Assembly: GCA_049652745.1 (NCBI GenBank)
Contig: JBASEY010000033.1
Location: 20,159 to 84,158 of the forward strand
Direction of reading: 5' to 3'
DNA: 64,000 nt
DNA from: a bacterium
GTDB lineage: Bacteria; CSSED10-310
In this document: piece by piece, positions 2 through 48,984 of the stretch
Numbering within the stretch: position 1 is the stretch's first letter
How the letters are laid out: the number at the start of each line of letters is the position of its first letter
Made by a program: the position numbers and the translations under genes
The notes under the pieces: generated by a model
Database searches by the model: none
What the model saw: only the letters and a program-made list of their open reading frames with translations
What the model was told of the DNA's origin: nothing

Positions 2-1780
2 GAACTGCTCGAGGCGGGAATGCAGAAGGATATTCGGCCGCTGGGTCGGTCGTCGCGCGGTCATGGAAGCGTGGCGGCGTACGATAACTCAAACCCGACG
101 CAATATTATTACGGCCCCGAAGAAGCCAATGTGCTGTATGCCGATGACATGCAACTGGCCGTAGCGGGAGGGGGATTGATGACAGCCTATGAGATCGGAT
201 TTTATACGGATGCGTCGGCTTCCTATCCGGTCACGGTCACCGCAAGGTTGTATAACGGGGCTCCCGACGGCGGAGGCACGGAGATTTCGGGCACGGCGAA
301 ATCCTGGACGATAACCGAGACCGGTTCCAATGCGTGGCTTTTAGTAAATGAACTGACTACGCCGATCACTATTCCGGAAACAGTCTATCTGGTCGTGTCG
401 TCGAACAGAGTAAATACCGGATGGATGGTATCTGGGCAAGCCAATTTAGGTTATACCGACGATTCATTTTGCCAAAAAATAAAGATTTGGATTTTCGAGT
501 TGTGGAGTTGTGGTCTAAGTTTCGAAGATGACGTTTGGGCCGGCTTCTATGCGACGATTTACCTCGATATGGAGCTCGATCCATGTGTGGAGTGTCCTCC
601 GGAAGGTGTTTTGGAGGGAGAGCCGCCTTGTGGAACGGGTTACGTCGACACCTATAACGGCGGCTGCAATAGTTCACCGGCGGTATTTCAACCGATTGCC
701 AACGGCGACATCATTTGCGGCCAGACCGGGACTTACGCGTTTGGTTCCGGCACCCATCGCGATACAGATTGGTTTGTGTTCACGTTGGCGGAAACCTCCA
801 TGGTCGAATGGCAGGCGTACGGCGAAGCTCCGATACAAGTCGCTTTGATCAAGCCTGGACTGGCGATTCCCGACGGATGTGCCGACCTGGAGGTCTTGGC
901 CGGCGCAATTTCCTATTACTGCGAACCGGCTCAGGTCCAATACTTATTGGATCCAGGAACATACTGGGCTTATGTGTCGATCAAATCAGGTTCCATTGGC
1001 TATCCTTGTGAAATTCCCTATGTCGCTGCGCTCAATTGGGGACCTGCGGCGTCGGAGACATGTGGTGCAGGAAGCATTTTTTCCCAACCTTTCGCCGGTG
1101 AAGTAGTCTACGTCAACTCAGATAACAATGCCGCCATATTGGCCGCTGATGATTTTTCCGGCGTGACAGCACCGATCAAGGTAGTGGAATGGTGGGGCGG
1201 CAACCTGAATAACAGCCCCAGTTGGCACGCCTGTTCCAAGCCCAACACGAATTTTGTCATCACATTTTACCAACCGGGCACGCTGCCGGGCTCTGTGGCA
1301 CGCCAGGAAACGGTGACGGCCACCCGTAGCGCCACCGGTCAGTACATATTCGGGAATGAAGGCTATGGATATAGTTATAAATACAGAGCTGAACTCGCCA
1401 CACCGCTCTCCTTATCCGCGGGCTGGATATCCATCGCTGCGGTCGACAGCGGAAGATGCTGGTTTATGTGGGGTGATGCCGGAGAGCCGCCGGCCAACGG
1501 CAGCCCTTACGTTCAAAACACGGGTAGTGGATGGGCGATAAGTACGGAACCGGATCAACACGTCGATCTGGCGTTCTGCTTGCTCGAAGAAGTCGTGATT
1601 CCAACGGAAACGCCTATTCCACCGACTGAAACGCCGATTCCGCCGACAAATACGCCGATCTCTCCGACAGAAACACCGGTACCTCCGCCCATTCCGTCCA
1701 CATCGCCTACCGGTCTATTTTTTGCATTGCTGGCGATCGGCATATTAATCGTATTGCCGGTATTGAGAAAAACGGTTTAA
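2..1780 (+). CDS. Secreted Cys-rich PPC-like surface protein, paralog A. It is 5'-partial because the frame is open to the window edge. The C-terminus is a Pro/Thr linker followed by a TM-anchor-like tail.
   Basis: Frame 2 is open from nt 2. One ~155-aa module has the Cys-rich motif CVECPPEG...CG..YVDTYNGGCNS...ICGQTG followed by RDTDWFVF...GTYWAYV (PPC-like D.DW[FY].F). The VEWWGGNLNNSP...NFVITFYQPG domain is shared with the paralog at 2368. The tail is (PTETPIP)x4-STSPTG-LFFALLAIGILIVLPVL-RKTV. Confidence 0.8.
   Translation, partial: ELLEAGMQKDIRPLGRSSRGHGSVAAYDNSNPTQYYYGPEEANVLYADDMQLAVAGGGLMTAYEIGFYTDASASYPVTVTARLYNGAPDGGGTEISGTAKSWTITETGSNAWLLVNELTTPITIPETVYLVVSSNRVNTGWMVSGQANLGYTDDSFCQKIKIWIFELWSCGLSFEDDVWAGFYATIYLDMELDPCVECPPEGVLEGEPPCGTGYVDTYNGGCNSSPAVFQPIANGDIICGQTGTYAFGSGTHRDTDWFVFTLAETSMVEWQAYGEAPIQVALIKPGLAIPDGCADLEVLAGAISYYCEPAQVQYLLDPGTYWAYVSIKSGSIGYPCEIPYVAALNWGPAASETCGAGSIFSQPFAGEVVYVNSDNNAAILAADDFSGVTAPIKVVEWWGGNLNNSPSWHACSKPNTNFVITFYQPGTLPGSVARQETVTATRSATGQYIFGNEGYGYSYKYRAELATPLSLSAGWISIAAVDSGRCWFMWGDAGEPPANGSPYVQNTGSGWAISTEPDQHVDLAFCLLEEVVIPTETPIPPTETPIPPTNTPISPTETPVPPPIPSTSPTGLFFALLAIGILIVLPVLRKTV
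1601..1684 (+). repeat. In-frame tandem repeat of four 21-nt units encoding (P-T-E/N-T-P-I-P/S)x4. It forms the linker before the C-terminal anchor of paralog A.
   Basis: Units ccaacggaaacgcctattcca, ccgactgaaacgccgattccg, ccgacaaatacgccgatctct and ccgacagaaacaccggtacct are directly visible. Confidence 0.8.
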
Positions 1781-1899
1781 GGGGTGAGCTTTATTTTGAA
1801 GACGGCGAGTGTTCGTGGTTTTTCAAAACACTTAAAAAGACTGTGGCGTTTGGGTTAACGGCAAGCTTCACCCGCAGACACTGACAATGTGTTATTTTT

Positions 1900-1938
1900 C
1901 CGCGGTGTGATATCGATGTCGCACTGCGGCTCTTTTTA
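1900..1938 (+). terminator. Candidate intrinsic terminator downstream of paralog A.
   Basis: Imperfect inverted repeat ccgcggtg...cactgcgg (7 of 8 bp), followed by the T-rich ctcttttta. It lies about 120 nt after the stop codon. Confidence 0.35.
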
Positions 1939-2079
1939 CGGGAACCATCTATGAAAAGGCAGACATTCAGAGAAATAAAAATTTCTTTTCGAACCTTTTT
2001 ATATCATTATAGGCAAACACTTTCACTTTGAAGATTTACCCCCAGACATCTGATCGATCGATTATTTTTTTTGCGCCGC

Positions 2080-2108
2080 TTGACAAATTCATTTTCTTCT
2101 GTTAGTAA
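2080..2108 (+). promoter_or_regulatory. Candidate sigma-70 promoter for the paralog B transcript.
   Basis: TTGACA at 2080-2085, a 17-nt spacer, then TAGTAA at 2103-2108. Confidence 0.35.
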
Positions 2109-2246
2109 TTATTATTGCTGTCAACAAACTCTACTGTGGTGTTGCGGTGTTGTATTTAGGGGATAAGTGTGAAGGGGGATGGTGATTTAATCACATGCTG
2201 GTGAATGCATTGACGCCACGGGCAATAGTCTCTACAGAGCAAATTC

Positions 2247-2290
2247 CGGTCTCCGCCGGAAGGGTGTATCCGGTATGGAGACCGTTTTTT
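2247..2290 (+). terminator. GC-rich hairpin plus U6 tract in the 5' leader of paralog B. It is a candidate attenuator or sRNA 3' end.
   Basis: cggtctcc at 2247-2254 pairs with ggagaccg at 2277-2284. An inner ccgga/tccgg pairing sits between them. tttttt follows at 2285-2290, 78 nt upstream of the ATG at 2368. Confidence 0.45.
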
Positions 2291-2367
2291 ATGTCTATAG
2301 CTCATGAAACAGGACTTGTTTCATTGAACTCAACAAACCGTGTAATGCGGAAGGGAGGAATTTTTCT

Positions 2368-4743
2368 ATGAAGAAAATGTTAATGTTAGGTTTTATCGTG
2401 CTGATTTTCTGTAGTTATGTCGCTGCGGAAACCGGCCAACTCAGCGCGAATACGCGCATAATTCAGCTCAATAGGATCGAAAAGAATATATTGAGCCCGC
2501 AGGTTTCTTCCGGCGATTGCAGTTCGGCATCGAGCTATCTTGCCAAATCAGACACGATCATCGAGAACCTGAGCCTGAACAAAATGGACTCGCCAATCAG
2601 CGCCGAGACAAAGCTGGATGCCCAGGTAATTCAGGAGCGGAACAGCCGTCAAAACTGTCCTGGTCTTCTGGCCTACAGCAATACTGACATCGAAGGTTAT
2701 TTTCCACCTGCGAACAACGTGAGCATAGCGGATGACATTATTTTGAATGTTGCGGGCGGAGGAGATCTGGTTTGCTATGAAATCGCATTTGCTTATGGAG
2801 CTTTCGTAGCCCCCCAAGTCAACGTCAACGCAGCCTTATACAATGGTCGTCCGGATCAGGGCGGGCAGTTGATTCCCGGCACCGAAGCAACGTGGGTGTT
2901 TGATTCCAGTGTTGAAGTGGGATATTATTACACCCTTACTGCAGAACTGGCAACGCCGGTTGCTATCCCGGAAATCGTTTTTCTTGTGATGAGTAAAAAC
3001 GCCGGTGGTAATGACAATGGATTTGCAGTTGCCGGAGCGGCGGAAATTGGGTATACGAACGATTGGTTTTGCATGCAAAATCCCGGCTGGATATGCGGCT
3101 ATTATTTCGGCGGCGACCCCTGGGCCGGATTTTTTGCAGAGTTGTATCTGGATATAGACCTGGAACCCTGTGTGACGTGTCCTCCCGGTGGGATCTTGGA
3201 AGCTGAACCGGCTTGCGGACCGGATTACGTGGATACCTACAATGGCGGTTGCAACAGTAACCCACCGGTTTTTCAGGCCATTTCCAGCGGGAACGTCATC
3301 TGTGGTCAGACCGGAGTGTTCGAAAACAGCGACTCGACCATTTCTCGTGATACCGATTGGTTCTCATTCACACTTGGCGAAGCCATGCTGGTCGAATGGG
3401 AAGTTTACGGTGAAGCTCCAATGCTTGCCGCAATTGCCAAACCGGGATCTGCCGGATGTGATGACTTTGAAGTTCTGGCCCTCGACACCGCAAATTATTG
3501 TGAAACTGTTTATCTTAGCGAAGTGTTGCCTGCGGGAACATACTGGGTTATCGCAATGGTCGATAATTTCTCAACATATTGGGAATGTGAAATTCCCTAT
3601 ATTGCATCGTTCAACACTATCAGCCTGACCCCGTGTGTGAGTTGTCCTCCCGGCGGTATTCCTGAAGGCGAACCTCCTTGCGGACCAAATTATAATGATA
3701 CGTTCAACGGCGGTTGCAACAGCACCCCATCCGTATTCCGACCTATTAGCAACAACAACGTCATCTGCGGCCAGACCGGTGTGTTCGATTATTCCGGAGA
3801 CACCTATCGTGATACCGATTGGTTTGTGTTCCAAGTCACTGAATACAGCTTGGTGGAATGGGAAGCCTACGGTGAAGCTCCAATGATGGTTGCTCTGATC
3901 GATCCGGGAGTAGCCATGCCCGATGGCTGCGCCGACATGTCGATTTTGGGTGTCGGCGTGTCACAGTACTGCGAAACCGCGACGATCAAACGCCTGGTGG
4001 AACCTGGCACGTATTGGGCTTTCGTATCGCTTGATACATTTAATGAATTCTTTGCTTGCGAGATTCCATATGTTGCTACGATTCACTGGGAACCTGCCGA
4101 TCCTGAAGACTGCGGTCCGGATACCATTTTCCCGCAGCCCTTTGCGGCGGAGGTCGTCTATGTCAATTCCGATGCCAATTCCGGTATCATCGTAGCGGAT
4201 GATTTTTCAGGTCTGACAGAGGCGATCACTGCGGTGGAGTGGTGGGGCGGCAACCTGAATAACAGCCCAACCTGGCATGGATGCACCAAACCCAATTCGA
4301 ATTTTGTCATCACCTTTTATCAGCCCGGAGCAGTTCCCGGGGCCGTCGTTTATCAGAAAACCGTCACAGCAGTTAAAACCCAGACCCTTCAGTTTGTATT
4401 TGGTAACACAGCTTACGGTCCTGTGATGAAATACAGAGCCGAGTTGCCGTCATCTGTCAGCATTCCCGCCGGGTGGATTTCCATTCAAGCTGTTGACAGC
4501 GGGACTTGCTGGTTCATGTGGGCTGATTCCGGAGCGCCGCCTGCCTCCGGCAGCGCTTTCGTTAGAGACTCAGGCTCAGGTTGGGAACTCGACGCGGAGC
4601 CAGATAATCAAGTTGATCTCGCTTTTTGCCTGATCGGCGGTGAACCACAACCCATTCCTGCCACATCACCCGTTGGTATCAGCATAGCATTGCTTGTCAT
4701 TGGAATTATGATCGCTCTGCCGATGCTGAGAAAATCTCTGTAA
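2368..4743 (+). CDS. Secreted Cys-rich PPC-like surface protein, paralog B. It has a signal peptide, two tandem ~155-aa modules, the conserved C-terminal domain and a TM-anchor-like tail.
   Basis: A GGGAGG RBS precedes an N-terminal MKKMLMLGFIVLIFCSYVAAETG. Two modules each carry C..CPPGG...CGP.Y.DT.NGGCNS...ICGQTGVF plus RDTDWF.F. The C-terminal domain resembles paralog A. The tail is SPVG-ISIALLVIGIMIALPML-RKSL. Confidence 0.85.
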   Translation: MKKMLMLGFIVLIFCSYVAAETGQLSANTRIIQLNRIEKNILSPQVSSGDCSSASSYLAKSDTIIENLSLNKMDSPISAETKLDAQVIQERNSRQNCPGLLAYSNTDIEGYFPPANNVSIADDIILNVAGGGDLVCYEIAFAYGAFVAPQVNVNAALYNGRPDQGGQLIPGTEATWVFDSSVEVGYYYTLTAELATPVAIPEIVFLVMSKNAGGNDNGFAVAGAAEIGYTNDWFCMQNPGWICGYYFGGDPWAGFFAELYLDIDLEPCVTCPPGGILEAEPACGPDYVDTYNGGCNSNPPVFQAISSGNVICGQTGVFENSDSTISRDTDWFSFTLGEAMLVEWEVYGEAPMLAAIAKPGSAGCDDFEVLALDTANYCETVYLSEVLPAGTYWVIAMVDNFSTYWECEIPYIASFNTISLTPCVSCPPGGIPEGEPPCGPNYNDTFNGGCNSTPSVFRPISNNNVICGQTGVFDYSGDTYRDTDWFVFQVTEYSLVEWEAYGEAPMMVALIDPGVAMPDGCADMSILGVGVSQYCETATIKRLVEPGTYWAFVSLDTFNEFFACEIPYVATIHWEPADPEDCGPDTIFPQPFAAEVVYVNSDANSGIIVADDFSGLTEAITAVEWWGGNLNNSPTWHGCTKPNSNFVITFYQPGAVPGAVVYQKTVTAVKTQTLQFVFGNTAYGPVMKYRAELPSSVSIPAGWISIQAVDSGTCWFMWADSGAPPASGSAFVRDSGSGWELDAEPDNQVDLAFCLIGGEPQPIPATSPVGISIALLVIGIMIALPMLRKSL
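3160..4089 (+). repeat. Two tandem 465-nt intragenic modules (3160-3624 and 3625-4089). A third copy lies in paralog A at about 575-1039.
   Basis: The protein-level repeats LEPCVTCPPGG...ASFN and LTPCVSCPPGG...ATIH are in register. At the nucleotide level they have diverged. Confidence 0.6.
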
Positions 4744-4751
4744 GTTTTTTT

Positions 4752-4801
4752 AGAATCCGCAACACAGCCGCAAGGATTACCCTGTTGCGGATTCTTTTTT
4801 T
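4752..4801 (+). terminator. Rho-independent terminator after paralog B.
   Basis: gaatccgcaaca..tgttgcggattc is a perfect ~12-bp stem. It is followed by cttttttttt. Confidence 0.75.
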
Positions 4802-4816
4802 AAAAGGAGAATGACA

Positions 4817-6862
4817 ATGAAAAGCCTGTTTCGATATTCGATACTGTCGGTGCTGATTTTCAGCCTTTCCCCTATCTATGCTCAGACTTGGGTCGAGGTT
4901 ACCGATAAGTTGGGGCTGACCGGCACACCGTCCTTTCGGATTTCGATCGTCGATCTGAACGGGGACGACTATCCCGACTTAGTGGTTCATGACGCCGTCG
5001 ATCATGCAAATTGGGATGTCATGAACAAAATGTATGTTTATTTGAATGTGGAAGGCGATACATCAGGCACTCGCAAGTTCATCGATTTCACTGAAGAATC
5101 CGGTATTCGTGCCAACAGGCGCGGGACTAAAGACGGCCGTCACTCCGACCTGGCTATTTTCGGTGATATCAATAACGACGGTTATCCGGACTATTTTGCA
5201 GGCGTGTATTACCATCGTCATACGTTCATACCCGAAAATATCGAATGGCTCGATACCAGCGAAGTTTTCTTGAATGACGGCACTGGCCGCTTCACGTTGG
5301 TTCCGGATACGCTCTTCTTCGACGGTGGTCTGACCAATGTTTCAAGCGCAGTTTTCGCTGATTTTGACCGTGACGGCAACCTGGACCTATTAGTCGGCAA
5401 TTGGTTCACCAAATATTTCGGCGGAACCGGCGACGTGTTCGCTCCAGATCAACTTTTCCGTGGCAACGGTGACGGAACGTTTCAAGACATGTCGGGAACA
5501 TCTGGCATACAGAACCCGGAAGTTCTCCAGCCGACTTACGGCGCTGCCGTCGCCGATGTCGATGAGGACGGATATCCGGATATTTTCCTCGGCAATTACT
5601 GTCGAGACAAATCGAAACACCTTCGAAACAACGGCGATTGGACCTTTACTGAAATTCATGAAACGTCGAATTACGGTCAATATGTCGGTCCCGGCAACTG
5701 CGCCTCCCACACCTGTTCATGGGGTTCCATGCCGCGGGATTTCAACAATGATGGTCATATCGACCTGTTCACGATCCTTGTTCACGGCTGTAGAAAAGTG
5801 ATGTCGGCGCCTTTGATCAACGATGGCACCGGCGTTTTCACCTGGGATTTCGATTGTATCAAAAGCCGCCTGGACGATGATCCGGCCAAACTGCACCATG
5901 GCGATCATTTTGCGACCTGGGTTGACTGGAACAACGACGGACTTGTCGATTTGATCCTGTCTGAAAACGGTTATGACAACAACCGGTTTTATATTTTTCG
6001 CCATGAACCGGATCACACACTCCAAGTCATTACACCGTCAACAGCGATGAGTGTTTTGAATACGGAAAATGTCTCGGTTCATAATGTTTCCGTTTTTGAT
6101 TTCGACCTGGACGGCGACGATGACATCATCATCGGCTCCGGTGACGGCGGACCTCTCCGAGTCTTCAGGAATGATATCGGGAACGCCAAAAATCATTTGA
6201 CGGCTACACTGGTCGGGGCCGGCAAACCAGGATTCAGCAACACATCGGCTATCGGCGCCAAAATTCAAGTGACCTACGGCGACACTACAATCACCCGCGT
6301 CGTGCGAGCCGGCGACGGCCATTTCGGCCCTCAAGTCCCGTTCAGACTGAATGTCGGTTTGGATACCGCCGCGCAGGCTGACCTGGTCACAATCACCTGG
6401 CCTAATCTTAGCCAGGATGTCTACAAGCTCAAAAAAATACCCGCCAATTCGCACATACGAATTTATGAGAATCCCGATCCGATTAAAAACGCGTCCGGCA
6501 CACGCCTATTCATCCCCACCGCTCATGTAACGCCAGGGGACCGCTTCAGCGTTTGGAGCTATTTATACAACAATTCCACACAAACCATGAAAAAGATTCC
6601 TTTTATGGCTGTCTTGGAAGTCGCGGGTATGTATTGGTTCTGGAACACCTGGTCGGAAGATGTCGGATATGATATTGTCGATGTCGACCCAGGCGTGACC
6701 ATGATAAACATACTGCCGGAATTTCAGTGGCCGGATACCGGAGACGGATCATTTGACGGCATCAGGTTTTACGCTGCCATGCTGAACGACTCGATGGACG
6801 ATATCATCGGCGGTTTTGACGGTTTGGGCTTCGCGGAATTTGGTTACGGCCCGAAAAAATAA
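4817..6862 (+). CDS. CRTAC1-family secreted protein with FG-GAP beta-propeller repeats and an ASPIC/UnbV domain.
   Basis: A signal peptide MKSLFRYSILSVLIFSLSPIYAQT follows an AGGAG RBS, spaced for the ATG at 4817. FG-GAP loops include DLNGDDYPDLVV, FDRDGNLDLLVGNW, DVDEDGYPDIFLGNY, FNNDGHIDLF, WNNDGLVDLIL and FDLDGDDDIIIGSG. The UnbV-like segment is AIGAKIQVTYGD...HFGPQ...VTITWPN. Confidence 0.8.
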   Translation: MKSLFRYSILSVLIFSLSPIYAQTWVEVTDKLGLTGTPSFRISIVDLNGDDYPDLVVHDAVDHANWDVMNKMYVYLNVEGDTSGTRKFIDFTEESGIRANRRGTKDGRHSDLAIFGDINNDGYPDYFAGVYYHRHTFIPENIEWLDTSEVFLNDGTGRFTLVPDTLFFDGGLTNVSSAVFADFDRDGNLDLLVGNWFTKYFGGTGDVFAPDQLFRGNGDGTFQDMSGTSGIQNPEVLQPTYGAAVADVDEDGYPDIFLGNYCRDKSKHLRNNGDWTFTEIHETSNYGQYVGPGNCASHTCSWGSMPRDFNNDGHIDLFTILVHGCRKVMSAPLINDGTGVFTWDFDCIKSRLDDDPAKLHHGDHFATWVDWNNDGLVDLILSENGYDNNRFYIFRHEPDHTLQVITPSTAMSVLNTENVSVHNVSVFDFDLDGDDDIIIGSGDGGPLRVFRNDIGNAKNHLTATLVGAGKPGFSNTSAIGAKIQVTYGDTTITRVVRAGDGHFGPQVPFRLNVGLDTAAQADLVTITWPNLSQDVYKLKKIPANSHIRIYENPDPIKNASGTRLFIPTAHVTPGDRFSVWSYLYNNSTQTMKKIPFMAVLEVAGMYWFWNTWSEDVGYDIVDVDPGVTMINILPEFQWPDTGDGSFDGIRFYAAMLNDSMDDIIGGFDGLGFAEFGYGPKK

Positions 6863-6954
6863 ACATTCTGTGAGCTTCACCATCACTTACCTACTGTAAG
6901 CTCCAAGAGAATAATGTAATGTGACCTTATATTCTTATTTAAGAAAGGCCTCCA

Positions 6955-8640
6955 ATGAAACGTTTTATATTTGTTACGATTATTTTCGCTTTGTCATCTT
7001 CTTCGGTGAGTTTCGCGCTGTTTCCTCGTGCTGAATTTCCGAAACCGTTGAACCCGGTAATCCGCGATTGTGATCGCTGGGATCTTCTGGTTGTCAAATT
7101 TCGTGAAAACACGGGGATTCGCCTTCGAAACGCGGATTTTGTATCGAAAAACAATGTCGATTTGACTGCGCTTTTTGAGCTTTTATCGTCTTATCCTGAA
7201 GTCAGATATGAACGATTATTTCGTCGTCCGGAGTATGTCTATGAAAATGAGAAACGCACTGGAGAACGACGAGTAGGACGTCAATTAGCGGATTTGAATC
7301 TGTATTTCGCTTTCGGACCTCCGGACAGGGAAACCGCGGAACGGTTATTAGTTGATTTAAACGCCTTGGAAATCGTGGAATGTGTTTACCCCGAGCCGAT
7401 TCCTCAGCTTGCTTTCATGCCCTCGGCCGGAAAGCGTGTTTTGCCGCCTTCGTATGTCCAGTATCAGGGCTACCTGAACGCTTCCCCGGTCGGTGTCGAT
7501 GTCGCCGCAGCACGCTCTTATCCAGGGGGTCGTGGAGAAAATGTCCGGATGATCGATGTTGAGCTGGCTTGGCGGTGGACACATATCGATCTGCCGACAC
7601 CTTTTTATCAAGGCGGTGTTCCATCGCAATTAGTGGACTACCGTCATCATGGAACAGCCGTGATGGGGATTATAACCGGTGTTGAAAACACCTATGGTAT
7701 AACAGGGATAGCTCCGTTAACCGAGGTCGGTGGTCAAGCGATAAATGAAGGTGACTGGCCTGAAAATGTCGGAACTTACTTTGACACAGCTTCCGCCGCC
7801 CTTGAACCGGGAGATATCTGGCTGATCGAATTGCATGGTCCTGGCCCTGCTGGTGATTACATACCAATGGAGTGGTGGCAGGCAAATTATGATGCGATCG
7901 CCAACTCCACCGCTCAAGGACGCATCTGCGTCGAAGCCGGCGGTAACGGCTCGGCAAATCTGGACGATTCCATCTACCAGGGCAAATTCAATCGATCCAC
8001 CAGGGATTCTTTAGCCATCATGGTCGCAGCCGGAACACCCTACAACATGAATCCTGAGTGGTTCACGAATTACGGGTCACGCATGGATGCAAACGGTTGG
8101 GGTTCCGCAATCTATACTACCGGCTACGGTGACCTTTATTCAGCAGGAGGCGAAGATTACTATTATACTTCTGATTTCGGCGGGACATCGGGAGCATCTC
8201 CGATCGTGGTAGGGGTTTGCTGCCTCGCCCAGTCCATTTACAAAGAGCTGACCGGAGGTGAAATACTGGACCCGGCCACTCTGCGAGCCGCCATTACAGA
8301 AACCGGCGCTCCCCAACCAAGCCCCGCCACCCAGTATATCGGTCCTCGTCCGAATCTGGCGGAATTATTGCTTCACGATATTTTCCAGCTCGAACCGACG
8401 CCGACACCCGTCCCAAGTAATACCCCGACGCCCGACTGTATCAATGACGGCGATGTCAATTTTGACGGCATCATATCCACTGCTGACGCGCAATTGACGT
8501 TCCTCATCGCAATCGGTCAATACTCCCCGACCTATCTTGAGGAATGTGCTGCAGACTGCAACGGCGACGGCTTGGTCACATCAGAAGATGCACAACTGGT
8601 TTTCTTGACAAGTTTAGGCACCGCAACCTGTGTGGATTAG
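6955..8640 (+). CDS. Secreted subtilisin-like (S8-type) serine peptidase with a C-terminal Pro/Thr linker and a tandem dockerin-like module.
   Basis: A signal peptide is present. The motifs are in D/H/S order: Asp in IDVE, His in HGTAVMGI, then AGGNGS and Ser in GTSGASP. The linker is PTPTPVPSNTPTPD. Two Ca-loop-plus-helix repeats follow: DVNFDGIISTADAQLTFL and DCNGDGLVTSEDAQLVFL (D.N.DG.....D). Confidence 0.7.
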   Translation: MKRFIFVTIIFALSSSSVSFALFPRAEFPKPLNPVIRDCDRWDLLVVKFRENTGIRLRNADFVSKNNVDLTALFELLSSYPEVRYERLFRRPEYVYENEKRTGERRVGRQLADLNLYFAFGPPDRETAERLLVDLNALEIVECVYPEPIPQLAFMPSAGKRVLPPSYVQYQGYLNASPVGVDVAAARSYPGGRGENVRMIDVELAWRWTHIDLPTPFYQGGVPSQLVDYRHHGTAVMGIITGVENTYGITGIAPLTEVGGQAINEGDWPENVGTYFDTASAALEPGDIWLIELHGPGPAGDYIPMEWWQANYDAIANSTAQGRICVEAGGNGSANLDDSIYQGKFNRSTRDSLAIMVAAGTPYNMNPEWFTNYGSRMDANGWGSAIYTTGYGDLYSAGGEDYYYTSDFGGTSGASPIVVGVCCLAQSIYKELTGGEILDPATLRAAITETGAPQPSPATQYIGPRPNLAELLLHDIFQLEPTPTPVPSNTPTPDCINDGDVNFDGIISTADAQLTFLIAIGQYSPTYLEECAADCNGDGLVTSEDAQLVFLTSLGTATCVD

Positions 8641-9251
8641 CTCCAATCAGCCTCTTCATGGATATCGATACATCTGACGACATCCTTTTGGACTTCACGG
8701 TATCGCAAACCGCTTTCGGGGCAAATCATGATTCCATCGTTATCCGGTTTTGACAGAGGAAGGCCGCGTCTGCCGACCCAACCTGTTCTGATCCCCGGCA
8801 CCCCCTTGATCAAAGCGTAATCGGGCACATCTCGTGTGACGACGGCTCCTGCAGCTATAAACGCATATCGTCCTACGACGATCCCGCAGAGAATCGTTGC
8901 GTTGGCGCCGATAGTACAGCCTTTTTTCAACAACGTTTTCTCAAACCGATCACGTCGGTTTATCCAGGATCTTGGATAAGTGACATTGGTCAGAACACAA
9001 GACGGTCCTAAAAACACATCATCTTCAATGATTGTGCCGGTATAAATCGAAACATTGTTCTGCACTTTGACATGGGATCCGATTTGCACATTAGATGCAA
9101 CGAAACAGTTTTGGCCGAAAACGCAATTTTCACCGATCTCGACATCCCGCATGATATGGGTGAAATGCCATATTTTGGTGCCGTCGCCGATGCGGCAGGG
9201 TTCATCGACATAAGCGCTTTCGTGTTTAAAATACACCTGATCCCTATCCAA
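8637..9251 (-). CDS. Hexapeptide-repeat (left-handed beta-helix) sugar N-acetyltransferase of the WbpD/PglD type.
   Basis: Repeated [LIV]G..... hexads run through GENCVFGQNCFVASNVQIGSHVKVQNNVSIYTGTIIEDDVFLGPSCVL...TIGANATIL. Confidence 0.75.
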   Translation of the reverse strand: MDRDQVYFKHESAYVDEPCRIGDGTKIWHFTHIMRDVEIGENCVFGQNCFVASNVQIGSHVKVQNNVSIYTGTIIEDDVFLGPSCVLTNVTYPRSWINRRDRFEKTLLKKGCTIGANATILCGIVVGRYAFIAAGAVVTRDVPDYALIKGVPGIRTGWVGRRGLPLSKPDNDGIMICPESGLRYREVQKDVVRCIDIHEEADWS

Positions 9252-9349: not shown

Positions 9350-9907
9350 TCAAGTACCCAAAGACTCTGACGATTCCACTGGCTCTATAGGCGTTACATC
9401 AAGTTCCGTCATCGTCTCCAGAACCTTATCTACAAACTTCACTCCATCTTCTTCAGGCATTTCCGGCAGAATTCTAAAGGCAACCATCATGCCAAAACCA
9501 CTTTTCAAAGTCAGATACATCGCTTCGATATTTGCCGGTGTCGGAAAGGTGTGCTTGAAATACTCCGCTTTGACCGAATTGCCGAGAAGGTTTCGATCAC
9601 GTGTCGAGTCTGGTTCATCCGTCAAACCGAGAAATGTCGTTTTTAAATATTTAAAAACATCAGGTTCTTTCATTTCCATCATTTGCTGGAGTTCTTTGGA
9701 AGCTTTGACAAAGATGATTTCCGCAAGCATCTTATCCGGTTCAGCTTTCGCCGGATACATGAAGCTGACGGCATCCAATCCGATCTTCATAGGATCGGAA
9801 AGATCAAAATCTGATTTGAATTGAATTGTTTCCCAGGAATACTCCCGGCTAAAAGCTACAGCACCTACCGCTGCCAGAATACAAAAATAGACGACATACC
9901 GCTTCAT
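9350..9907 (-). CDS. Hypothetical secreted protein.
   Basis: The ATG at 9907 has an AGGAGG RBS 9 nt upstream. Signal peptide MKRYVVYFCILAAVGAVAFS. No recognisable family. Confidence 0.55.
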   Translation of the reverse strand: MKRYVVYFCILAAVGAVAFSREYSWETIQFKSDFDLSDPMKIGLDAVSFMYPAKAEPDKMLAEIIFVKASKELQQMMEMKEPDVFKYLKTTFLGLTDEPDSTRDRNLLGNSVKAEYFKHTFPTPANIEAMYLTLKSGFGMMVAFRILPEMPEEDGVKFVDKVLETMTELDVTPIEPVESSESLGT

Positions 9908-9976
9908 CGATTGAGCCCTCCTCAAAATGAAAGCTTTTTTAAACGCATTTAAGCTATGGTGATAGTCTTTCGATAT

Positions 9977-10702
9977 TTATTGTATATAACCCGGTAAATA
10001 CACATCATAAACCGGGTCAAGCTCCAGATTTCCATCTTTCTCAGCAAGTTTGCCCACAAATGCCGTCACATAGCCTGTTCCACCGTACATCGAAATATAT
10101 TTTTTGTGGTCATAATTTTTGGGACTTCGCAGTTGAATCATCATAAAGTCAGGAGTCAAGGCGCCTTCACCAAAAATTATGTTTAAGCTGGCGTTGTCAT
10201 TGAAGGGATTGGGATTGGTTTGAGCGGCAAAATAGATATATTGGTCTTTAGCGGCTTCCAAAAACAGTTTCACTCTTTCTTCTTTCGAGGTGATTTGTCC
10301 AGCGATGATTTTCTCGACAATCGGTGCGCTGTCGACAAAGCCTTTCGCTTCAGGTATTTCTTTCTCGATGACCTCACGCCTTTCAGGCGTAATTCTCCAA
10401 TCCATACCGCGGGTCTTCTGATAGACATTCTCTTCTTTCGGCTGCTCTTCTTTTTCCTCTTTTCCGGCAATATCCGAAGTCAGTTCCAATTTGTCCGATT
10501 TTCTGACAGAGGCTATATCGGATGCGTCTTTTCGAGTAGTAATTCGCTTTGCTTCATCTTTTACCACAGTATCGGCTGACTGTGCCTTTGGAGCCTCTTC
10601 CTTGGTAGCGACAGGTACGGGTTTCTGCTTATCGGAACCACAGCCCACGCCGATTAAACCGATGATTACCAAAATTAAAAAAAGCGTGACAAAATTTTTC
10701 AT
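9977..10702 (-). CDS. Hypothetical lipoprotein-like protein with a Lys/Glu-rich region.
   Basis: N-terminal MKNFVTLFLILVIIGLIGVGC-GSD is followed by a charged low-complexity stretch. No recognisable family. The start could also be the upstream in-frame ATG at 10720. Confidence 0.5.
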   Translation of the reverse strand: MKNFVTLFLILVIIGLIGVGCGSDKQKPVPVATKEEAPKAQSADTVVKDEAKRITTRKDASDIASVRKSDKLELTSDIAGKEEKEEQPKEENVYQKTRGMDWRITPERREVIEKEIPEAKGFVDSAPIVEKIIAGQITSKEERVKLFLEAAKDQYIYFAAQTNPNPFNDNASLNIIFGEGALTPDFMMIQLRSPKNYDHKKYISMYGGTGYVTAFVGKLAEKDGNLELDPVYDVYLPGYIQ

Positions 10703-10882
10703 GTTTTCTCTTTCCTCCATTCTTCTTGACTAAATTCACCTATCGTGTTTCATCTTCCTAAAAATTATATTCATAAATCCTTTAGAAGCAATACTATTCT
10801 TCAGTATATCAACGCTCACTTAAACGAAGACTCTCAAAATTTGAGATGCTATTTGTTTCTCTGCTTACCATCTGCCGCCGCT

Positions 10883-43725: not shown

Positions 43726-43977
43726 TAAAGCTGAAATAAATGGCAACAAGCTTTCTGTAAACCCGAATCGATTACTGAAAAATATAAACTCGATTAATCT
43801 TGTACAAGACACAAAATCGGTTAGTGGACTTGATATTTTTGATTCAAGTATCGCAATAATGCAATAAACAACGTGCTTCTTTTTTTACGTACAGGCAAAA
43901 TCATTGACAGATCGGCTTCAAAAAAGATAGAATTAAAGCTGATTAGCGTGTTTTTTTTGGAAAAAGGAGAATGTGTA

Positions 43978-46900
43978 ATGAAGATTAATCAGTATTTATT
44001 ATATCTATTACTTTTCCTTGTTGTCTTCAATTATGGTGTTTTAGCTGATACTCAATGGATCGACATGGTCAGCCCGATAAATCACAGTCAATGGAAGAAT
44101 ATTGCCGTTGGTGATCTCGATACTGATGGTATTCCGGATATTGTTGCTGCAAACCCTGATCCTAACGAACAGTTTTCCGATTATTCCGGTTTACCGGTCT
44201 GGCTGGGACAAATTTATAGTGGTTCACAGGCACCTTTTTATTGGGGGCTCTCTAGAGGTTATGAAATTTCGGGGACCAGCGTCAGTATGCCTCTCCCTGA
44301 TCCTAAAAATACTGCATCTCCGCATGTTTCATGTGTTTTCATTGGCAATACATGCAATTTAATGGGTGAATGGACTATGGAAATCGCCGAAAAGGCTCGA
44401 ATAAACCAGTTGTATGTTGTTTCCGGCGGGTCCGATTTCAATGCTGCGATCCCTTCCGGTGTATTTTGGCCTGATATATATCATCTGGATTATGATACGT
44501 GGAAATTTACTCAGATTGAATCCGGCAATTCATTCAAGGTGTTCAGTGAACGATATGGGCAACAAAGCAACAATCTGACGTTAGGAGTTCCATATACTTC
44601 CGATAGAGGGCAAATTGAGATTCTGGTCACACGGAAGACTAAAGGCAATGCACAGGATCCGGAAATTTTCCATATTGTTACTCAGCCTGCATTGGCCAAC
44701 GTGTATACCATCGATCGAATCAGTTACCCTGAAAGGCGGTATTTGACAGATAATACGGGTAATACTTTGATCAGACCCAGCGCCATCTTTGTAGATCGCT
44801 CATCCTTGATGCAGTTGCGTTATGATCCCAAACCTTTTGACGAGCCATTGACTAAGGGGCAAAAATGGTATTTTCATACCCCCCACGGACCGAAAACCAA
44901 TGAAGCATACAACTCAGTAAAATTGTTTGATGTCAACAGAGACGGGCAATTGGATATCGTTGCTGCGGGTCCCAATGGCATCGATATTTTTCTTCAAACC
45001 GGGCCGGCTATGAGCGATTGGGGATTTCAACCTATCAATCCTCGTAATGGTGTTCCGAACAATGGTTTTGTTGCATACTTAGGCGTAGGCGAAAATGAAA
45101 ACAATCACGTATATCCCAATGTCGTCAGGGACGATGTCTGGGTGGCTGAATATAAAGACGGCTTTTTTTCTGCTTATGGTTTATTTACCCATGCCAGCGG
45201 CCCAAGGTTTTTGCCTTATGAGCAAACATCAACTTACTGCCGCGAATTGACAATCAAGAGTATTACCGGCGGGCCGTTTATAAATGGAGACAAGTTTTAC
45301 TTTTCGGTCAAACGCGTAAACTGGGATATAAGATCCGGTCCGGACACATCCGCCGATTACACTGACATATTGGTCGATGATATCACAAGGAACGGTTATG
45401 CAGATATCATCGCTTCAAAAGCCACCGGCGGTTTTGATTATTTTTCTTTTAATGGAACAAATTGGATCAAGAAAGAGGGAATTACTTTCGGTAATGTCGT
45501 TACCAGTATGCTTCTCAAGGACGTCGATAATGATGGTTGGCTTGACTTGATAGCGTCCAGTAATCGAGGGGTGCATGTTTGGAGAAAATTGCCCGGCGGC
45601 GGATGGGATAGAGACACCGGACCGGCACAAGACAGATCGTTTTTGGGAGTGACTGCGGCGGATTTCAACAAAGACGGTTTCATGGATATAGCTGCAACTG
45701 AAGATCTTGGTGGAGATGTGGGCGCAATTCAAGTATGGTATTTCGATTCAGAAAAAGGTTGGTTTCAGCGTTCGCGGGCATCCGTCCCGACTCCTGATCC
45801 GAATAACGTCGGAAATGGTTTCATGAGTGTCGTCAAGGTTTCTCATATTCTCACTATTCCTGAGATTTGGACGCTGACATGCGATGTCGAAATGGCGAAT
45901 AGTGGCTTATTTCGGGTAACAGGGAGCCGTTCAGGCATCCAGTCGAAGATGGCAAGAGTGGGTGAAGCCTATATTTCTGACAGAGGTCAGGTTGAATTTA
46001 CGATTTTTGATGGTTTGGTAGATTACGCCGTCAATGACAAGTTTACTTTTAGAACGGGGCGGGGACCATTGGAGCTAAGAAAATTTGGCGCTATTGCCGC
46101 CTCCGACCTGAATAAAGACGGCAATATGGATATTTTTGCCACTTCGCTGAACAATTTCGGCATCGGTATCTGGCTGGGCAATGGGCATTATGGGTGGCTG
46201 GCCGAGACACCACCCGAATCCAGCAGCTCGTGGCAAACCCTTTCCGCAGACGTTGATCTGAATTTCGACGGTCACCCGGATATCGTCGCAGGAAGTTATT
46301 CACCTGGTGGAGGTATCCAGAACGGAATAAAAATATGGGTCGGCAAACATAGCTCTCCCAACGTCTGGAAAGATTGGATTTATAAGCCGATCATCAATGG
46401 AAGGTTTAATAAAATTGTTCATGCCGATTTCAACAATGACGGAAATCTTGATATAGCTCTGACCAGTGATGACCCGTCAAATGAGGGAATCTGGTTGCTG
46501 ACAGGGAACGGACAGGGAGATTTTGAGAAAATCACCACTCCTATAAGCGATGATACCAATTATTTTTCCATTTGTGCCGGTGATTTTAATCAGGATGGCC
46601 TATGTGATATCGCCGCAGGCAAAAAAGGCGAAGGATTCGACGTTTTCCTGAACGGCCCCGATTTTAGCTGGAGTAACAATACCAGTTCGATCATGGTAGG
46701 CGAAATTTACGATATCACCGCTGCGGACATCGATCGGGACGGGCATCTGGATTTGATCATCGCCCAAAACTACATTTCATCTGATCGACCGGGAGTGATC
46801 GTTTATTTCAACGATGGGAAAGGCAATTTTTCTGATTCGCAATCGATGCCGTTGTCGGCAACTGTATACAGCCATTGGAGTGTAGACGCCATCGATCTGG

Positions 46901-48984
46901 ACAACAATGGAATCCTGGATATCATCACGACGAATGCTTCAGGAAACCCCGGCACTTTTATTTTCTATGGATTTTTGGATGACGATGATCGGCTCAACTA
47001 CAATTCTTATACTATAATCGTCGATCCTCAAGGACATGATCACAATTATGGTTTGGCGGTTGCAGATTTTAATCTGGATGCTCAAAAAGAATTTGCAACG
47101 GGGAGTGATGGACATGGCGGCCTTGGATTCGTAGGCTTTGGAAGTCATTTTGAAGAATGTAATTTTATGTGGACAACTCTCGGCTTTGGTAAAATACGCG
47201 ACATAGCCGTTGCAGACATCACCAATAATGGATATCCGGATATCGTGATTTCTACTGAGCAAAACGGTGTTCAAGCCTATAAAACAGTCCCCGGTTTTCC
47301 CGGTCAACATTCATTTTCATTTGCGCCTTTAAAACATCCTGCCGGCACAGGTGATTATGTCGGCATAACGGCGGCGGATTTCACCAATGACGGTTTGATC
47401 GATGTCATTGCTTCCAGGAATCAGAGTTCGGGAGCCTCAGGTCTTGATATGTGGATTAGTTATAGAGACTTTTCCTTACCGCGTATCACAAACACTTATC
47501 CCAAAAATAACACCACGTTTAATGTCGGTGCAGATACTGATGTATATGTGAGTTTTTCGAAAACAATGGATCCTTCGACTCTGACCTACGAAAATATACA
47601 GATTACAAAAGACGGAAATCCTATCGGATATTCTATTGTCACACTGGATTCCAACCACACGATACGAATCACGGCAAGCGAGATGGTCAGGCATGCACAG
47701 TATACTGTGACCATTGTCGGCGGTTTTGAAGGTGTTCGTGATCAGAACGGTAACATGTTCGACGGCAATCAGGACGGCCAAGCCCAGGAATCGCCATACG
47801 ATGATTATGTGTTCAGTTTTATAACCATCGATACGATTCCGCCATCGGTTCCAACCGGTCTTTTAGCCACCCCTGGGGATGCTGAAGTGTCCCTCAGGTG
47901 GCTCCCAAATAATCACCCCATTTTGGATTCGGATTTGGAAGGATATTATGTCGTCTGGCAGGTTGCTGACCACTCAGAACCGGAAAATTACAAGTTTTAT
48001 TCTAAAGAAGAGCTTGGAGTGCCTCCGAGAATCACTATTCGTGGTGTAAAAAACTTGGTAGAATTGGAGCTGTCGGTTGTATCTCGAGACTTTGATTACA
48101 ATGAATCTCTTTATAGTGAGAGAGTGAGAGTTCTGCCATATCCGGAACGCCCACAAATTTGGTGGGGGGGGACGTATGACACTCTTGTCACGTCAAATGA
48201 AGGCGGTTATATGACGTTGCTGGCATTTGTCGTGGATCCCAAAGGGACAATTCAAAACGTTGAACTCTACTATGAAGACATGCCGACCGGGGCTTACCTG
48301 ATCGATGGAGGCCATCCGGATTTTCCCTCAGGGCTGGGATTGTATGCACTTCATGGCCGAGTTGACCCGCTGCATACAGGCTATCTCGAAATTCCATTTC
48401 AGATGGTCGCTCATAGCACCAGCGGTTTAAAAAGCGCTATGTGGCCTTATTTGCATATGCAGCGCGATATTCCCGGCAGCGGCGGCAGCACGGCAAGCCC
48501 GCGACCCGGTTCGCTTGAAAGATATTTCGCCCTCAAACACCAGCAGTTCATCCGACAAACTGAAATACCTTTTGAGCGCCAACGACCATCGACGTCACCA
48601 GACAGACCACAGATTCTCTGTGCCGGCTTCACGGCCAACCCAGAAGCCGATTTCGAATTCGGAGCTCGTAATTGGTTGACAGCCATAGTCGTCGACCCTA
48701 ATGATGGAGATGGTTACAGTGACATCCAGACTGTCGAGCTGATTTATCGCAACGAGAGATATCCTCTTGTCAATACCGGTATAGCGAATTTTGGTTTTGC
48801 AGATGAGCTGGAGTTGACGCCGGTTATTTGGGGTATTGACCTGACCTGGTATGGTGAAGAGACTGATCCTGAAGGCCCCAACGGAAGACAACATTACCTT
48901 GAAGGACCGCAGCTGATGAAAATTCAAGCTGTCGATTATGATGGAAATGCCAGTGATATATGGCCTTACTTTATTGTAAACTAA
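43978..48984 (+). CDS. Giant secreted FG-GAP repeat protein (1668 aa) with at least two beta-propellers and C-terminal Ig-like and fibronectin-III-like domains.
   Basis: GGAGA RBS. Signal peptide MKINQYLLYLLLFLVVFNYGVLA. There are at least 14 FG-GAP Ca-loops, including DLDTDGIPDIVA, FDVNRDGQLDIVAAG, DVDNDGWLDLIAS, ADFNKDGFMDIAAT, ADFNNDGNLDIALT and ADIDRDGHLDLIIA. An Ig-like segment and an FN3 segment (PPSVPTGLLATPGDAEVSLRW) follow. Confidence 0.85.
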   Translation: MKINQYLLYLLLFLVVFNYGVLADTQWIDMVSPINHSQWKNIAVGDLDTDGIPDIVAANPDPNEQFSDYSGLPVWLGQIYSGSQAPFYWGLSRGYEISGTSVSMPLPDPKNTASPHVSCVFIGNTCNLMGEWTMEIAEKARINQLYVVSGGSDFNAAIPSGVFWPDIYHLDYDTWKFTQIESGNSFKVFSERYGQQSNNLTLGVPYTSDRGQIEILVTRKTKGNAQDPEIFHIVTQPALANVYTIDRISYPERRYLTDNTGNTLIRPSAIFVDRSSLMQLRYDPKPFDEPLTKGQKWYFHTPHGPKTNEAYNSVKLFDVNRDGQLDIVAAGPNGIDIFLQTGPAMSDWGFQPINPRNGVPNNGFVAYLGVGENENNHVYPNVVRDDVWVAEYKDGFFSAYGLFTHASGPRFLPYEQTSTYCRELTIKSITGGPFINGDKFYFSVKRVNWDIRSGPDTSADYTDILVDDITRNGYADIIASKATGGFDYFSFNGTNWIKKEGITFGNVVTSMLLKDVDNDGWLDLIASSNRGVHVWRKLPGGGWDRDTGPAQDRSFLGVTAADFNKDGFMDIAATEDLGGDVGAIQVWYFDSEKGWFQRSRASVPTPDPNNVGNGFMSVVKVSHILTIPEIWTLTCDVEMANSGLFRVTGSRSGIQSKMARVGEAYISDRGQVEFTIFDGLVDYAVNDKFTFRTGRGPLELRKFGAIAASDLNKDGNMDIFATSLNNFGIGIWLGNGHYGWLAETPPESSSSWQTLSADVDLNFDGHPDIVAGSYSPGGGIQNGIKIWVGKHSSPNVWKDWIYKPIINGRFNKIVHADFNNDGNLDIALTSDDPSNEGIWLLTGNGQGDFEKITTPISDDTNYFSICAGDFNQDGLCDIAAGKKGEGFDVFLNGPDFSWSNNTSSIMVGEIYDITAADIDRDGHLDLIIAQNYISSDRPGVIVYFNDGKGNFSDSQSMPLSATVYSHWSVDAIDLDNNGILDIITTNASGNPGTFIFYGFLDDDDRLNYNSYTIIVDPQGHDHNYGLAVADFNLDAQKEFATGSDGHGGLGFVGFGSHFEECNFMWTTLGFGKIRDIAVADITNNGYPDIVISTEQNGVQAYKTVPGFPGQHSFSFAPLKHPAGTGDYVGITAADFTNDGLIDVIASRNQSSGASGLDMWISYRDFSLPRITNTYPKNNTTFNVGADTDVYVSFSKTMDPSTLTYENIQITKDGNPIGYSIVTLDSNHTIRITASEMVRHAQYTVTIVGGFEGVRDQNGNMFDGNQDGQAQESPYDDYVFSFITIDTIPPSVPTGLLATPGDAEVSLRWLPNNHPILDSDLEGYYVVWQVADHSEPENYKFYSKEELGVPPRITIRGVKNLVELELSVVSRDFDYNESLYSERVRVLPYPERPQIWWGGTYDTLVTSNEGGYMTLLAFVVDPKGTIQNVELYYEDMPTGAYLIDGGHPDFPSGLGLYALHGRVDPLHTGYLEIPFQMVAHSTSGLKSAMWPYLHMQRDIPGSGGSTASPRPGSLERYFALKHQQFIRQTEIPFERQRPSTSPDRPQILCAGFTANPEADFEFGARNWLTAIVVDPNDGDGYSDIQTVELIYRNERYPLVNTGIANFGFADELELTPVIWGIDLTWYGEETDPEGPNGRQHYLEGPQLMKIQAVDYDGNASDIWPYFIVN

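Follow-up and report, generated by a model that had tools for sequence, protein, structure and literature searches.

Four adjacent genes for exported proteins in a CSSED10-310 bacterium are probably ordinary members of a lineage-wide modular family

Do four neighbouring genes that encode exported proteins of different kinds form one molecular system, or are they ordinary members of a larger protein family that stand side by side? This question is raised by the left end of a 64,000-nucleotide (nt) stretch of DNA (positions 20,159 to 84,158 of contig JBASEY010000033.1, assembly GCA_049652745.1), here called the window, from a bacterium of the lineage CSSED10-310. The lineage has been described as Gram-negative, heterotrophic and of anoxic sediments and is known only from metagenome-assembled genomes (MAGs), with Zod_Metabat.1246 as a published example (PMC8248873). 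The four genes, A to D, are consecutive open reading frames (ORFs) on the forward strand, with A open at the left window edge (Table 1). The initial annotation had described them as two anchor-tailed proteins, a CRTAC1/ASPIC-UnbV FG-GAP protein and a dockerin-tagged S8 peptidase, and had considered a shared function as one unit plausible. Order, strand and the kinds assigned to C and D were borne out; the functional unit was not. In our view, the four genes are probably unexceptional representatives of a modular family of exported proteins that extends across the lineage, and not the parts of a dedicated multi-protein machine.

Three C-terminal modules take each other's place on related heads, often via a Pro/Thr linker: an anchor tail, an immunoglobulin (Ig)-like C-terminal domain (CTD) or a dockerin. 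The window locus carries all three, and the B family uses all three as well, namely the anchor tail on A, B and P0002-P0005, the CTD on P0006 and P0007, and the dockerin on P0008, where it replaces the anchor and is 60% identical to the dockerin of D. The same exchange was seen with other heads. Beta-helix heads with 30% identity across 440 amino acids (aa) end with a dockerin in locus L006 and with the CTD in L092, and CRTAC1 heads carry the CTD in the window, none of the modules in L093 and, in C homologs from other phyla, the CTD of the type IX secretion system (T9SS; PF18962) at the corresponding position. The three modules would set the localisation of the heads to which they are attached.

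The anchor tail consists of the motif [IV]P-x-[ST]-[SG]-P-x-G, followed by ~17 hydrophobic residues and R/K. Besides the B-family proteins named above, it was found on distant homologs of B (P0011, P0019 and P0024, ~30-38% identical) and on unrelated proteins in L013, L048, L093 and L094. Motif, helix and basic end resemble those of the PEP-CTERM/exosortase, IPTL-CTERM, MYXO-CTERM, GlyGly-CTERM/rhombosortase and LPXTG/sortase systems. However, the tails of A and B reached no curated NCBIfam cutoff (PEP-CTERM, IPTL-CTERM, MYXO-CTERM, GlyGly-CTERM, LPXTG, PGF-CTERM) and did not match the NCBIfam sorting-domain models at E<=10. When 11 anchor tails were scanned with NCBIfam, all matches to sorting models fell below the cutoff and disagreed with one another, and the window and the examined loci showed no sortase-like enzyme. 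The tail of A and B may simply be a permanent membrane anchor.

The CTD is a ~120-aa Ig-like beta-sandwich, and the isolated domain of C had no Pfam match at E<=10. An exhaustive search detected it in 1342 protein-cluster representatives (308 at E<=1e-10). Analysis of the CTD proteins by local phmmer and hidden Markov models (HMMs) showed it at the extreme C-terminus of diverse heads in 142 of the 149 top matches, with a P+T-rich stretch directly before it in 59 of 121. After a long Pro/Thr linker, it ends P0006, a third paralog of A and B (BLAST E 4e-12, HMM E 1e-28); the other heads that bear it include a beta-helix, an M23 peptidase, DUF362 and three proteins in L009. In its size, its fold and its place at the very end of numerous secreted proteins that are otherwise unrelated, the CTD resembles the T9SS CTD and CARDB Ig domains. 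We rejected its assignment as a T9SS CTD, since PF18962 did not match and only generic Ig/CARDB fold matches were obtained. From its sequence distribution, the CTD looks like a sorting or attachment tag.

The Cys-bracketed dockerin of the D type occurred, at 57-75% identity, on S8, Kelch, beta-helix, astacin and B-family heads, and dockerin-tagged peptidases of several clans seem to be common in the CSSED10-310 lineage. The anchor motif and the Ig-like CTD are two uncharacterised, widely reused C-terminal elements and possible new localisation signals. If the modules do specify localisation, the surface proteomes of uncultured sediment bacteria would become easier to predict.

The conservation of the neighbourhood was assessed in 80 loci (1.2 Mb) of GTDB species representatives that carry a B-type domain, from Zixibacteria, Planctomycetota, Eisenbacteria, Krumholzibacteria and other groups. 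An alignment of the Cys-rich head served as query, and partners were called by family HMMs. An S8 peptidase was nearby in three of these loci and a CRTAC1/FG-GAP gene in four, with both present only in L010. The second-best genome match to the B-type domain was the original CSSed10_310 MAG (L011). B, C and D were found together only in L001 (98% identity) and in L002/L010 (B 67%, C 91-93%, D 86-90% identical). Downstream, L001 and L002/L010 also have in common the genes for a hexapeptide-repeat transferase, UDP-glucose dehydrogenase, CutA, SmpB, PGK and LarC. Since these housekeeping neighbours are shared too, we attribute the conservation of B, C and D to recent common ancestry, that is, to plain synteny.

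Beyond these near relatives, the genes occurred in other company. P0003, 50% identical to B and with the same anchor, lies between the genes for a class-II (Asp/Asn/Lys-type) tRNA synthetase and a lytic transglycosylase (L003, L011), and L003 contains no protease or CRTAC1 neighbour. Homologs of D (56-76% identical) in L008, L009, L095 and L096 have no CRTAC1 or B-family neighbour, and homologs of C in L092 (67-71%), L093 (56-58%) and L094 (50%) have no S8 neighbour. Partial recurrences were found twice. In L004/L005, P0008 (53% identical to B) stands in the order Kelch-dockerin, P0008, reprolysin, outer membrane protein (OMP), S8-dockerin. In L006, which lacks a B-family gene, the order is CRTAC1, reprolysin and OMP, S8-dockerin, beta-helix-dockerin; the D homolog there is 77-82% and the CRTAC1 protein 82% identical to its counterpart in the window, and the two genes are within 3 kb of each other with reprolysin and OMP inserted on the opposite strand. 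Conservation across relatives, which had been proposed as a check on the four-gene unit, was thus seen in the near relatives and in part in L004/L005 and L006, and was absent from L003, L008, L009 and L092-L096.

The intergenic regions also divide the locus. The gaps measure 587 nt (A-B), 67 nt (B-C) and 92 nt (C-D). A consensus scan reported a terminator-like hairpin in the first of them, and RNA folding revealed another in the second (-25.4 kcal/mol, z-score -4.46), which none of 200 shuffled sequences equalled. This hairpin has an 18-nt loop region with T-runs flanking both sides and looks like a bidirectional intrinsic terminator, a prediction made from the sequence. The automatic consensus scan had missed it because of the long loop, and the promoter/terminator scan alone had implied a B-C-D operon; we rejected this operon, as the hairpin separates B from C. 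No stable RNA structure was obtained on folding the C-D gap (z-score -0.08), which leaves co-transcription of C and D possible. With hairpins 3' of A and B and none between C and D, the likely transcription units are [A], [B] and [C-D], so that among the four genes only C and D would be co-transcribable. These predicted units fit with C-D being the sole pair that shows any wider conservation.

Taken together, the occurrence of the combination in one of 80 B-domain loci, the hairpins after A and B, and the outcome of the Pfam and fold searches, which detected no cohesin in A, B, C or elsewhere in the window, speak against the proposal that the four genes act as one functional unit. Some observations weigh against our interpretation. 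The adjacency of C and D could reflect real functional coupling, as could the finding that L004/L005 and L006, with their different arrangements, again have a B-family or a CRTAC1 gene near S8-dockerin. Moreover, a CTD-tagged gene lies beside an S8 gene in three head contexts (CRTAC1 in the window, DUF362 in L096, BNR/unknown in L009), and that such clustering of tagged genes is unremarkable is our judgement, not a statistic. As a system the locus is weak; its value is descriptive, as a first look at how secreted proteins are built in the barely studied CSSED10-310.

All four proteins are of known kinds: PPC-fold/DUF7901 proteins, a CRTAC1-family protein and a dockerin subtilase. The data support their being exported and envelope-associated or extracellular; they would leave the cytoplasm by the Sec route and reside at the surface. 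Signal peptides had been ascribed to all four. In B, C and D, inspection and hydropathy revealed a hydrophobic stretch behind a basic N-terminus, and the N-terminus of A lies outside the window; P0005, the full-length ortholog of A (656 aa, 99% identical), has a signal peptide. The same annotation had given each protein a Pro/Thr linker, which we found only in A (aa 531-572) and D; in B there is no more than a Pro-rich connector of 10 residues, and C lacks a linker altogether.

A and B are 56% identical over 410 aa and 65% identical in the DUF7901-type domain. In L001, P0006 (844 aa, 69% identical to A) is encoded upstream of A, which shows that the cluster is larger than the window reveals; a divergent RND efflux operon lies beyond it. 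Judged by their sequences, A, B and this third copy are tandem duplicates of a non-catalytic modular protein, and the locus would thus comprise tandem-duplicated binding proteins beside a CRTAC1/protease pair. In the AlphaFold (AF2) model of B (mean predicted local distance difference test score, pLDDT, 81.7), an N-terminal helix and a disordered segment precede four beta-sandwich domains and a C-terminal helix (aa 768-790). The C-termini of both A and B consist of a hydrophobic helix and then RK. Fold searches matched the two middle domains to clostridial collagen-binding domains and a collagenase PPC domain (Foldseek 5iku, E 1e-8), and gave only generic jelly-roll matches for the first and last sandwich domains.

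The PPC-fold domains of the A/B family share a near-invariant Cys-rich head, C..C....E.EP.C....D..NGGCNS...RDTDW[YF]. PF04151 (PPC) matched neither the whole proteins (Pfam, NCBIfam) nor the isolated domains (E<=10), so that the PPC assignment is one of fold; the description of A and B as anchor-tailed and PPC-like therefore stands for the tails and the fold and fails for the sequence model. The domains have the fold of the ColG/ColH collagen-binding domains (PPC superfamily) but differ from them in the missing PF04151 match, the additional Cys-rich head and the absence of a peptidase domain from the protein. The only Pfam match of A and B was DUF7901 (PF25470), which exceeded its cutoff of 24 bits with the isolated C-terminal domain of B (27.4 bits) and stayed below it with the whole proteins (A 16.1, B 21.3 bits). 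A sequence search of the PDB with B gave no match, and a literature search found no papers on DUF7901. The first domain of the Kelch-dockerin protein in L004 shares 47% identity with DUF7901 of B.

We found 188 homologs of B. Among the 120 listed, none had a peptidase domain by Pfam and ~20 had PF04151, which runs counter to the earlier view that non-catalytic proteins seldom bear a PPC domain. By analogy with the collagen-binding domains, A and B may bind particles, proteins or other polymers at the cell surface, where the C-terminal transmembrane (TM) tail would hold them.

Protein C matched FG-GAP_3 (108.7 bits), FG-GAP and UnbV_ASPIC (46.8 bits; cutoff 23.4) in Pfam and also the human CRTAC1 structure 9etn (E 2e-10). 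It thus shares the FG-GAP propeller and UnbV_ASPIC with the CRTAC1 family, from which it differs in being bacterial and in its added lineage-specific CTD. The nearest named homologs are annotated 'CRTAC1 family protein [candidate division CSSED10-310 bacterium]', and a contig of Zod_Metabat.1246 encodes a homolog of 56-58% identity; in a CSSED10-310 MAG (L093), an astacin-dockerin gene is convergent to the CRTAC1 homolog. A metagenome scan with C yielded just two distant FG-GAP loci and no further clade-level neighbourhoods, and a literature search returned nothing useful on the function of bacterial CRTAC1 proteins.

Protein D reached the cutoffs of both Peptidase_S8 (PF00082; 35.0 bits, cutoff 21.8) and Dockerin_1 (PF00404; 23.2 bits for the whole protein and 31.2 for the isolated domain, cutoff 22.9), and matched PDB subtilisins with E values down to 5e-6. 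Alignment to subtilisin DY (1bh6) located Asp201 (MIDVE), His232 (HHGTAV) and Ser412 (GTSGASP), an Asp-His-Ser triad in subtilase order, and the oxyanion Asn331 (GGNGS). As all catalytic residues are in place, D is probably an active enzyme, secreted and made in a pre-pro form; the ~150-aa N-terminal pro-region had no Pfam match. Extracellular protein degradation would be its function. In the dockerin, the Ca-loop repeat occurs twice, as DVNFDG (aa 500) and as DCNGDG (aa 534). We found 461 homologs of D, and the nearest named relatives are annotated 'candidate division CSSED10-310 bacterium'. Compared with its orthologs, D is short: those at 64-77% identity comprise 913-976 aa (L004, L006, L008, L095), with an extra ~350-415 aa between catalytic domain and dockerin. 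A fusion link between D and DUF7901 through this stretch was considered and rejected, as Pfam gave only weak fn3, MAM and Reelin-like matches.

Could the three modules instead be read jointly, as a lineage-level surface-display code, with the locus giving rise to a protease that is tethered and assembled together with binding partners? The anchor tail would then be a new processed sorting signal served by a sortase-like enzyme, the CTD a new secretion or attachment tag that substitutes for the T9SS CTD, and the dockerin a ligand of a non-cohesin receptor, possibly DUF7901 or the CTD. We regard this possibility as unlikely.

Functional coupling might also be limited to C and D, with the propeller working with, or being processed by, the subtilase and with A and B as unrelated neighbours. 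The 92-nt gap without stable structure is in line with this, as are the adjacency of the two genes in the window, L001 and L002/L010, their proximity in L006 without a B-family gene, and the fusion of some D homologs to FG-GAP repeats (P0194, P0212). FG-GAP repeats, however, are fused to many kinds of protein. Against a functional pair, the C homologs of L092, L093 and L094 (50-71% identical) lack an S8 neighbour and the D homologs of L004, L008, L009, L095 and L096 (56-76%) lack a CRTAC1 neighbour. In L006, moreover, the S8 gene is followed at ~7 kb by a hexapeptide-repeat transferase gene, possibly the equivalent of the one that abuts D, so that even this pairing may be inherited synteny. 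On balance, we find a dedicated C-D pair quite unlikely.

The presence of an anchor-tailed protein and a dockerin-tagged protease in one same-strand group could point to a cellulosome-like surface complex, in which A and B would be anchored scaffolds or capture modules and the dockerin of D would plug into one of their domains for proteolysis at the surface. D has a type-I dockerin with two Ca-binding F-hand repeats behind a Pro/Thr linker, as do cellulosomal enzymes, and this dockerin type is reused on many heads in related genomes. L001 and L002/L010 retain the gene group, L004/L005 have a B-family gene at a distance of three genes from S8-dockerin, and a new cohesin-like function of DUF7901 or the CTD as dockerin receptor is conceivable. 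Unlike in cellulosomes, no cohesin or scaffoldin was found here, peptidases, Kelch, beta-helix and binding proteins stand in for glycoside hydrolases as heads, the dockerin is Cys-bracketed (DC...C..C...CVD) and the organism is Gram-negative. P0008 bears a dockerin itself in place of an anchor, which makes the B family cargo-like rather than a scaffold; the anchored P0003 has no protease or CRTAC1 neighbour; and the combination is lacking in 79 of the 80 B-domain loci. With terminator-like hairpins after A and B in addition, we consider such a complex very unlikely. D adds a further case of a dockerin-bearing peptidase in a Gram-negative lineage without a known cohesin partner.

That D is a maturation peptidase which cleaves the CTD or the Pro/Thr linkers of its neighbours, comparable to PorU acting on T9SS C-terminal domains, is extremely improbable: D-family S8 genes do have CTD genes with different heads as immediate neighbours in the window lineage, L096 (DUF362-CTD) and L009 (two CTD proteins), but no CTD gene was found within 10 kb of S8 in L004, L008 and L095, CTD genes cluster together without S8 in L092 and L094, the CTD is absent from the D-family members P0121-P0240, and the family is widespread in Myxococcota, Eisenbacteria and Krumholzibacteria, there with FlgD/T9SS-type tags, like a general exoprotease.

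The interpretation that we prefer, ordinary members of a lineage-wide modular family, thus relates to the features compiled in Table 1.

Table 1. Positions of the genes, protein parts and other features in the window and in the related loci (TM, transmembrane)
Feature	Locus	Position (nt)	Strand	Residues or size	Remarks
Gene A, partial coding sequence	window	2..1780	+		N-terminus beyond window; paralog of B
A, jelly-roll	window	~47-568	+		domain-by-domain tblastn
A, Cys-rich PPC-fold	window	~569-1048	+		domain-by-domain tblastn
A, DUF7901-like	window	~1055-1585	+		domain-by-domain tblastn
A, Pro/Thr linker	window	1592-1717	+		hydropathy
A, IPSTSPTG, TM helix, RK tail	window	1691-1777	+		hydropathy
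Terminator-like hairpin	window	1900..1939	+	13 pairs then T-run	A-B gap; consensus scan, consensus match only
Gene B	window	2368..4743	+	791 aa	jelly-roll, Cys-rich PPC-fold, DUF7901, anchor tail
B, signal peptide	window			aa 1-20	
B, disordered segment	window			aa 19-93	
B, jelly-roll	window	2650-3153		aa 95-262	
B, two Cys-rich PPC-fold domains	window	3154-4098		aa 263-420 and 421-577	
B, DUF7901	window	4102-4638		aa 579-757	
B, IPATSPVG, TM, RK	window	4654-4740		aa 763-791	
Terminator-like hairpin	window	4752..4802	+	13-bp stem then U7	B-C gap; RNA fold
Gene C	window	4811..6862	+	683 aa	CRTAC1-family FG-GAP/UnbV_ASPIC, Ig-like CTD
C, signal peptide	window				
C, FG-GAP and UnbV_ASPIC core	window	4886-6475		aa 26-555	
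C, CTD	window	6476-6859		aa 556-683	
Gene D	window	6955..8640	+	561 aa	S8 subtilase, type-I dockerin
D, signal peptide	window			aa 1-21	
D, putative pro-region	window			to ~aa 170	
D, S8 domain	window	7465-8400		aa 171-482	
D, Pro/Thr linker	window			aa 479-495	
D, Cys-bracketed type-I dockerin	window	8440-8637		aa 496-561	
Hexapeptide-repeat transferase gene	window	8637..9251	-		convergent to D
Small ORF	window	9350-9925	-	191 aa	signal-peptide/lipoprotein-like N-terminus; no Pfam match
Small ORF	window	9977-10720	-	247 aa	signal-peptide/lipoprotein-like N-terminus; no Pfam match
Second FG-GAP protein	window	43873-48984		1703 aa	FG-GAP_3 180 bits; Big_5
P0006	L001	4419-6953		844 aa	third paralog, ends with CTD
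Anchor tail on unrelated protein	L013	178-3246	-		
Anchor tail on unrelated protein	L048	8966-11065			
Anchor tail on unrelated protein	L093	2486-4162	-		
Anchor tail on unrelated protein	L093	7651-9939			
Anchor tail on unrelated protein	L094	3077-6178			
Beta-helix with CTD	L092	8243-9835			
M23 peptidase with CTD	L094	6266-8473			
DUF362 with CTD	L096	1574-3619			
Kelch-dockerin	L004	7244-9766			
Astacin-dockerin	L093	11705-13741	-		
Long D ortholog	L004	14717-17647			
Long D ortholog	L006	10001-12811			
Long D ortholog	L008	10001-12754			
Long D ortholog	L095	2414-5155			
Reprolysin/OMP pair	L004	11954-14460			opposite strand to S8-dockerin
Reprolysin/OMP pair	L006	7172-9734			opposite strand to S8-dockerin
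CRISPR-Cas	L006	904-3684			upstream of S8-dockerin
CRISPR-Cas	L095	5861-14977			adjoins S8-dockerin

Several further observations concern the surroundings of the S8-dockerin genes. A reprolysin-type metallopeptidase and a small OMP beta-barrel are encoded as a pair directly upstream of S8-dockerin in L004 and L006, and this pair is absent from the window. CRISPR-Cas genes adjoin the S8-dockerin locus in L006 (Cas6, a Cas4-Cas1 fusion, Cas2) and in L095 (Cas3, GSU0053-family, Cas4-Cas1, Cas2), with none at the corresponding position of the window.

In the remaining 55 kb of the window, no other copies of the anchor tail, the CTD or the dockerin were detected. The larger second FG-GAP protein encoded there carries none of the three C-terminal modules. 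The stop codon of D overlaps the 3' end of the convergent hexapeptide-repeat transferase gene. Each of the two small ORFs that follow is matched in near relatives by an ORF comparable in length and place, the 191-aa one in L001 and the 247-aa one in both L001 and L002.

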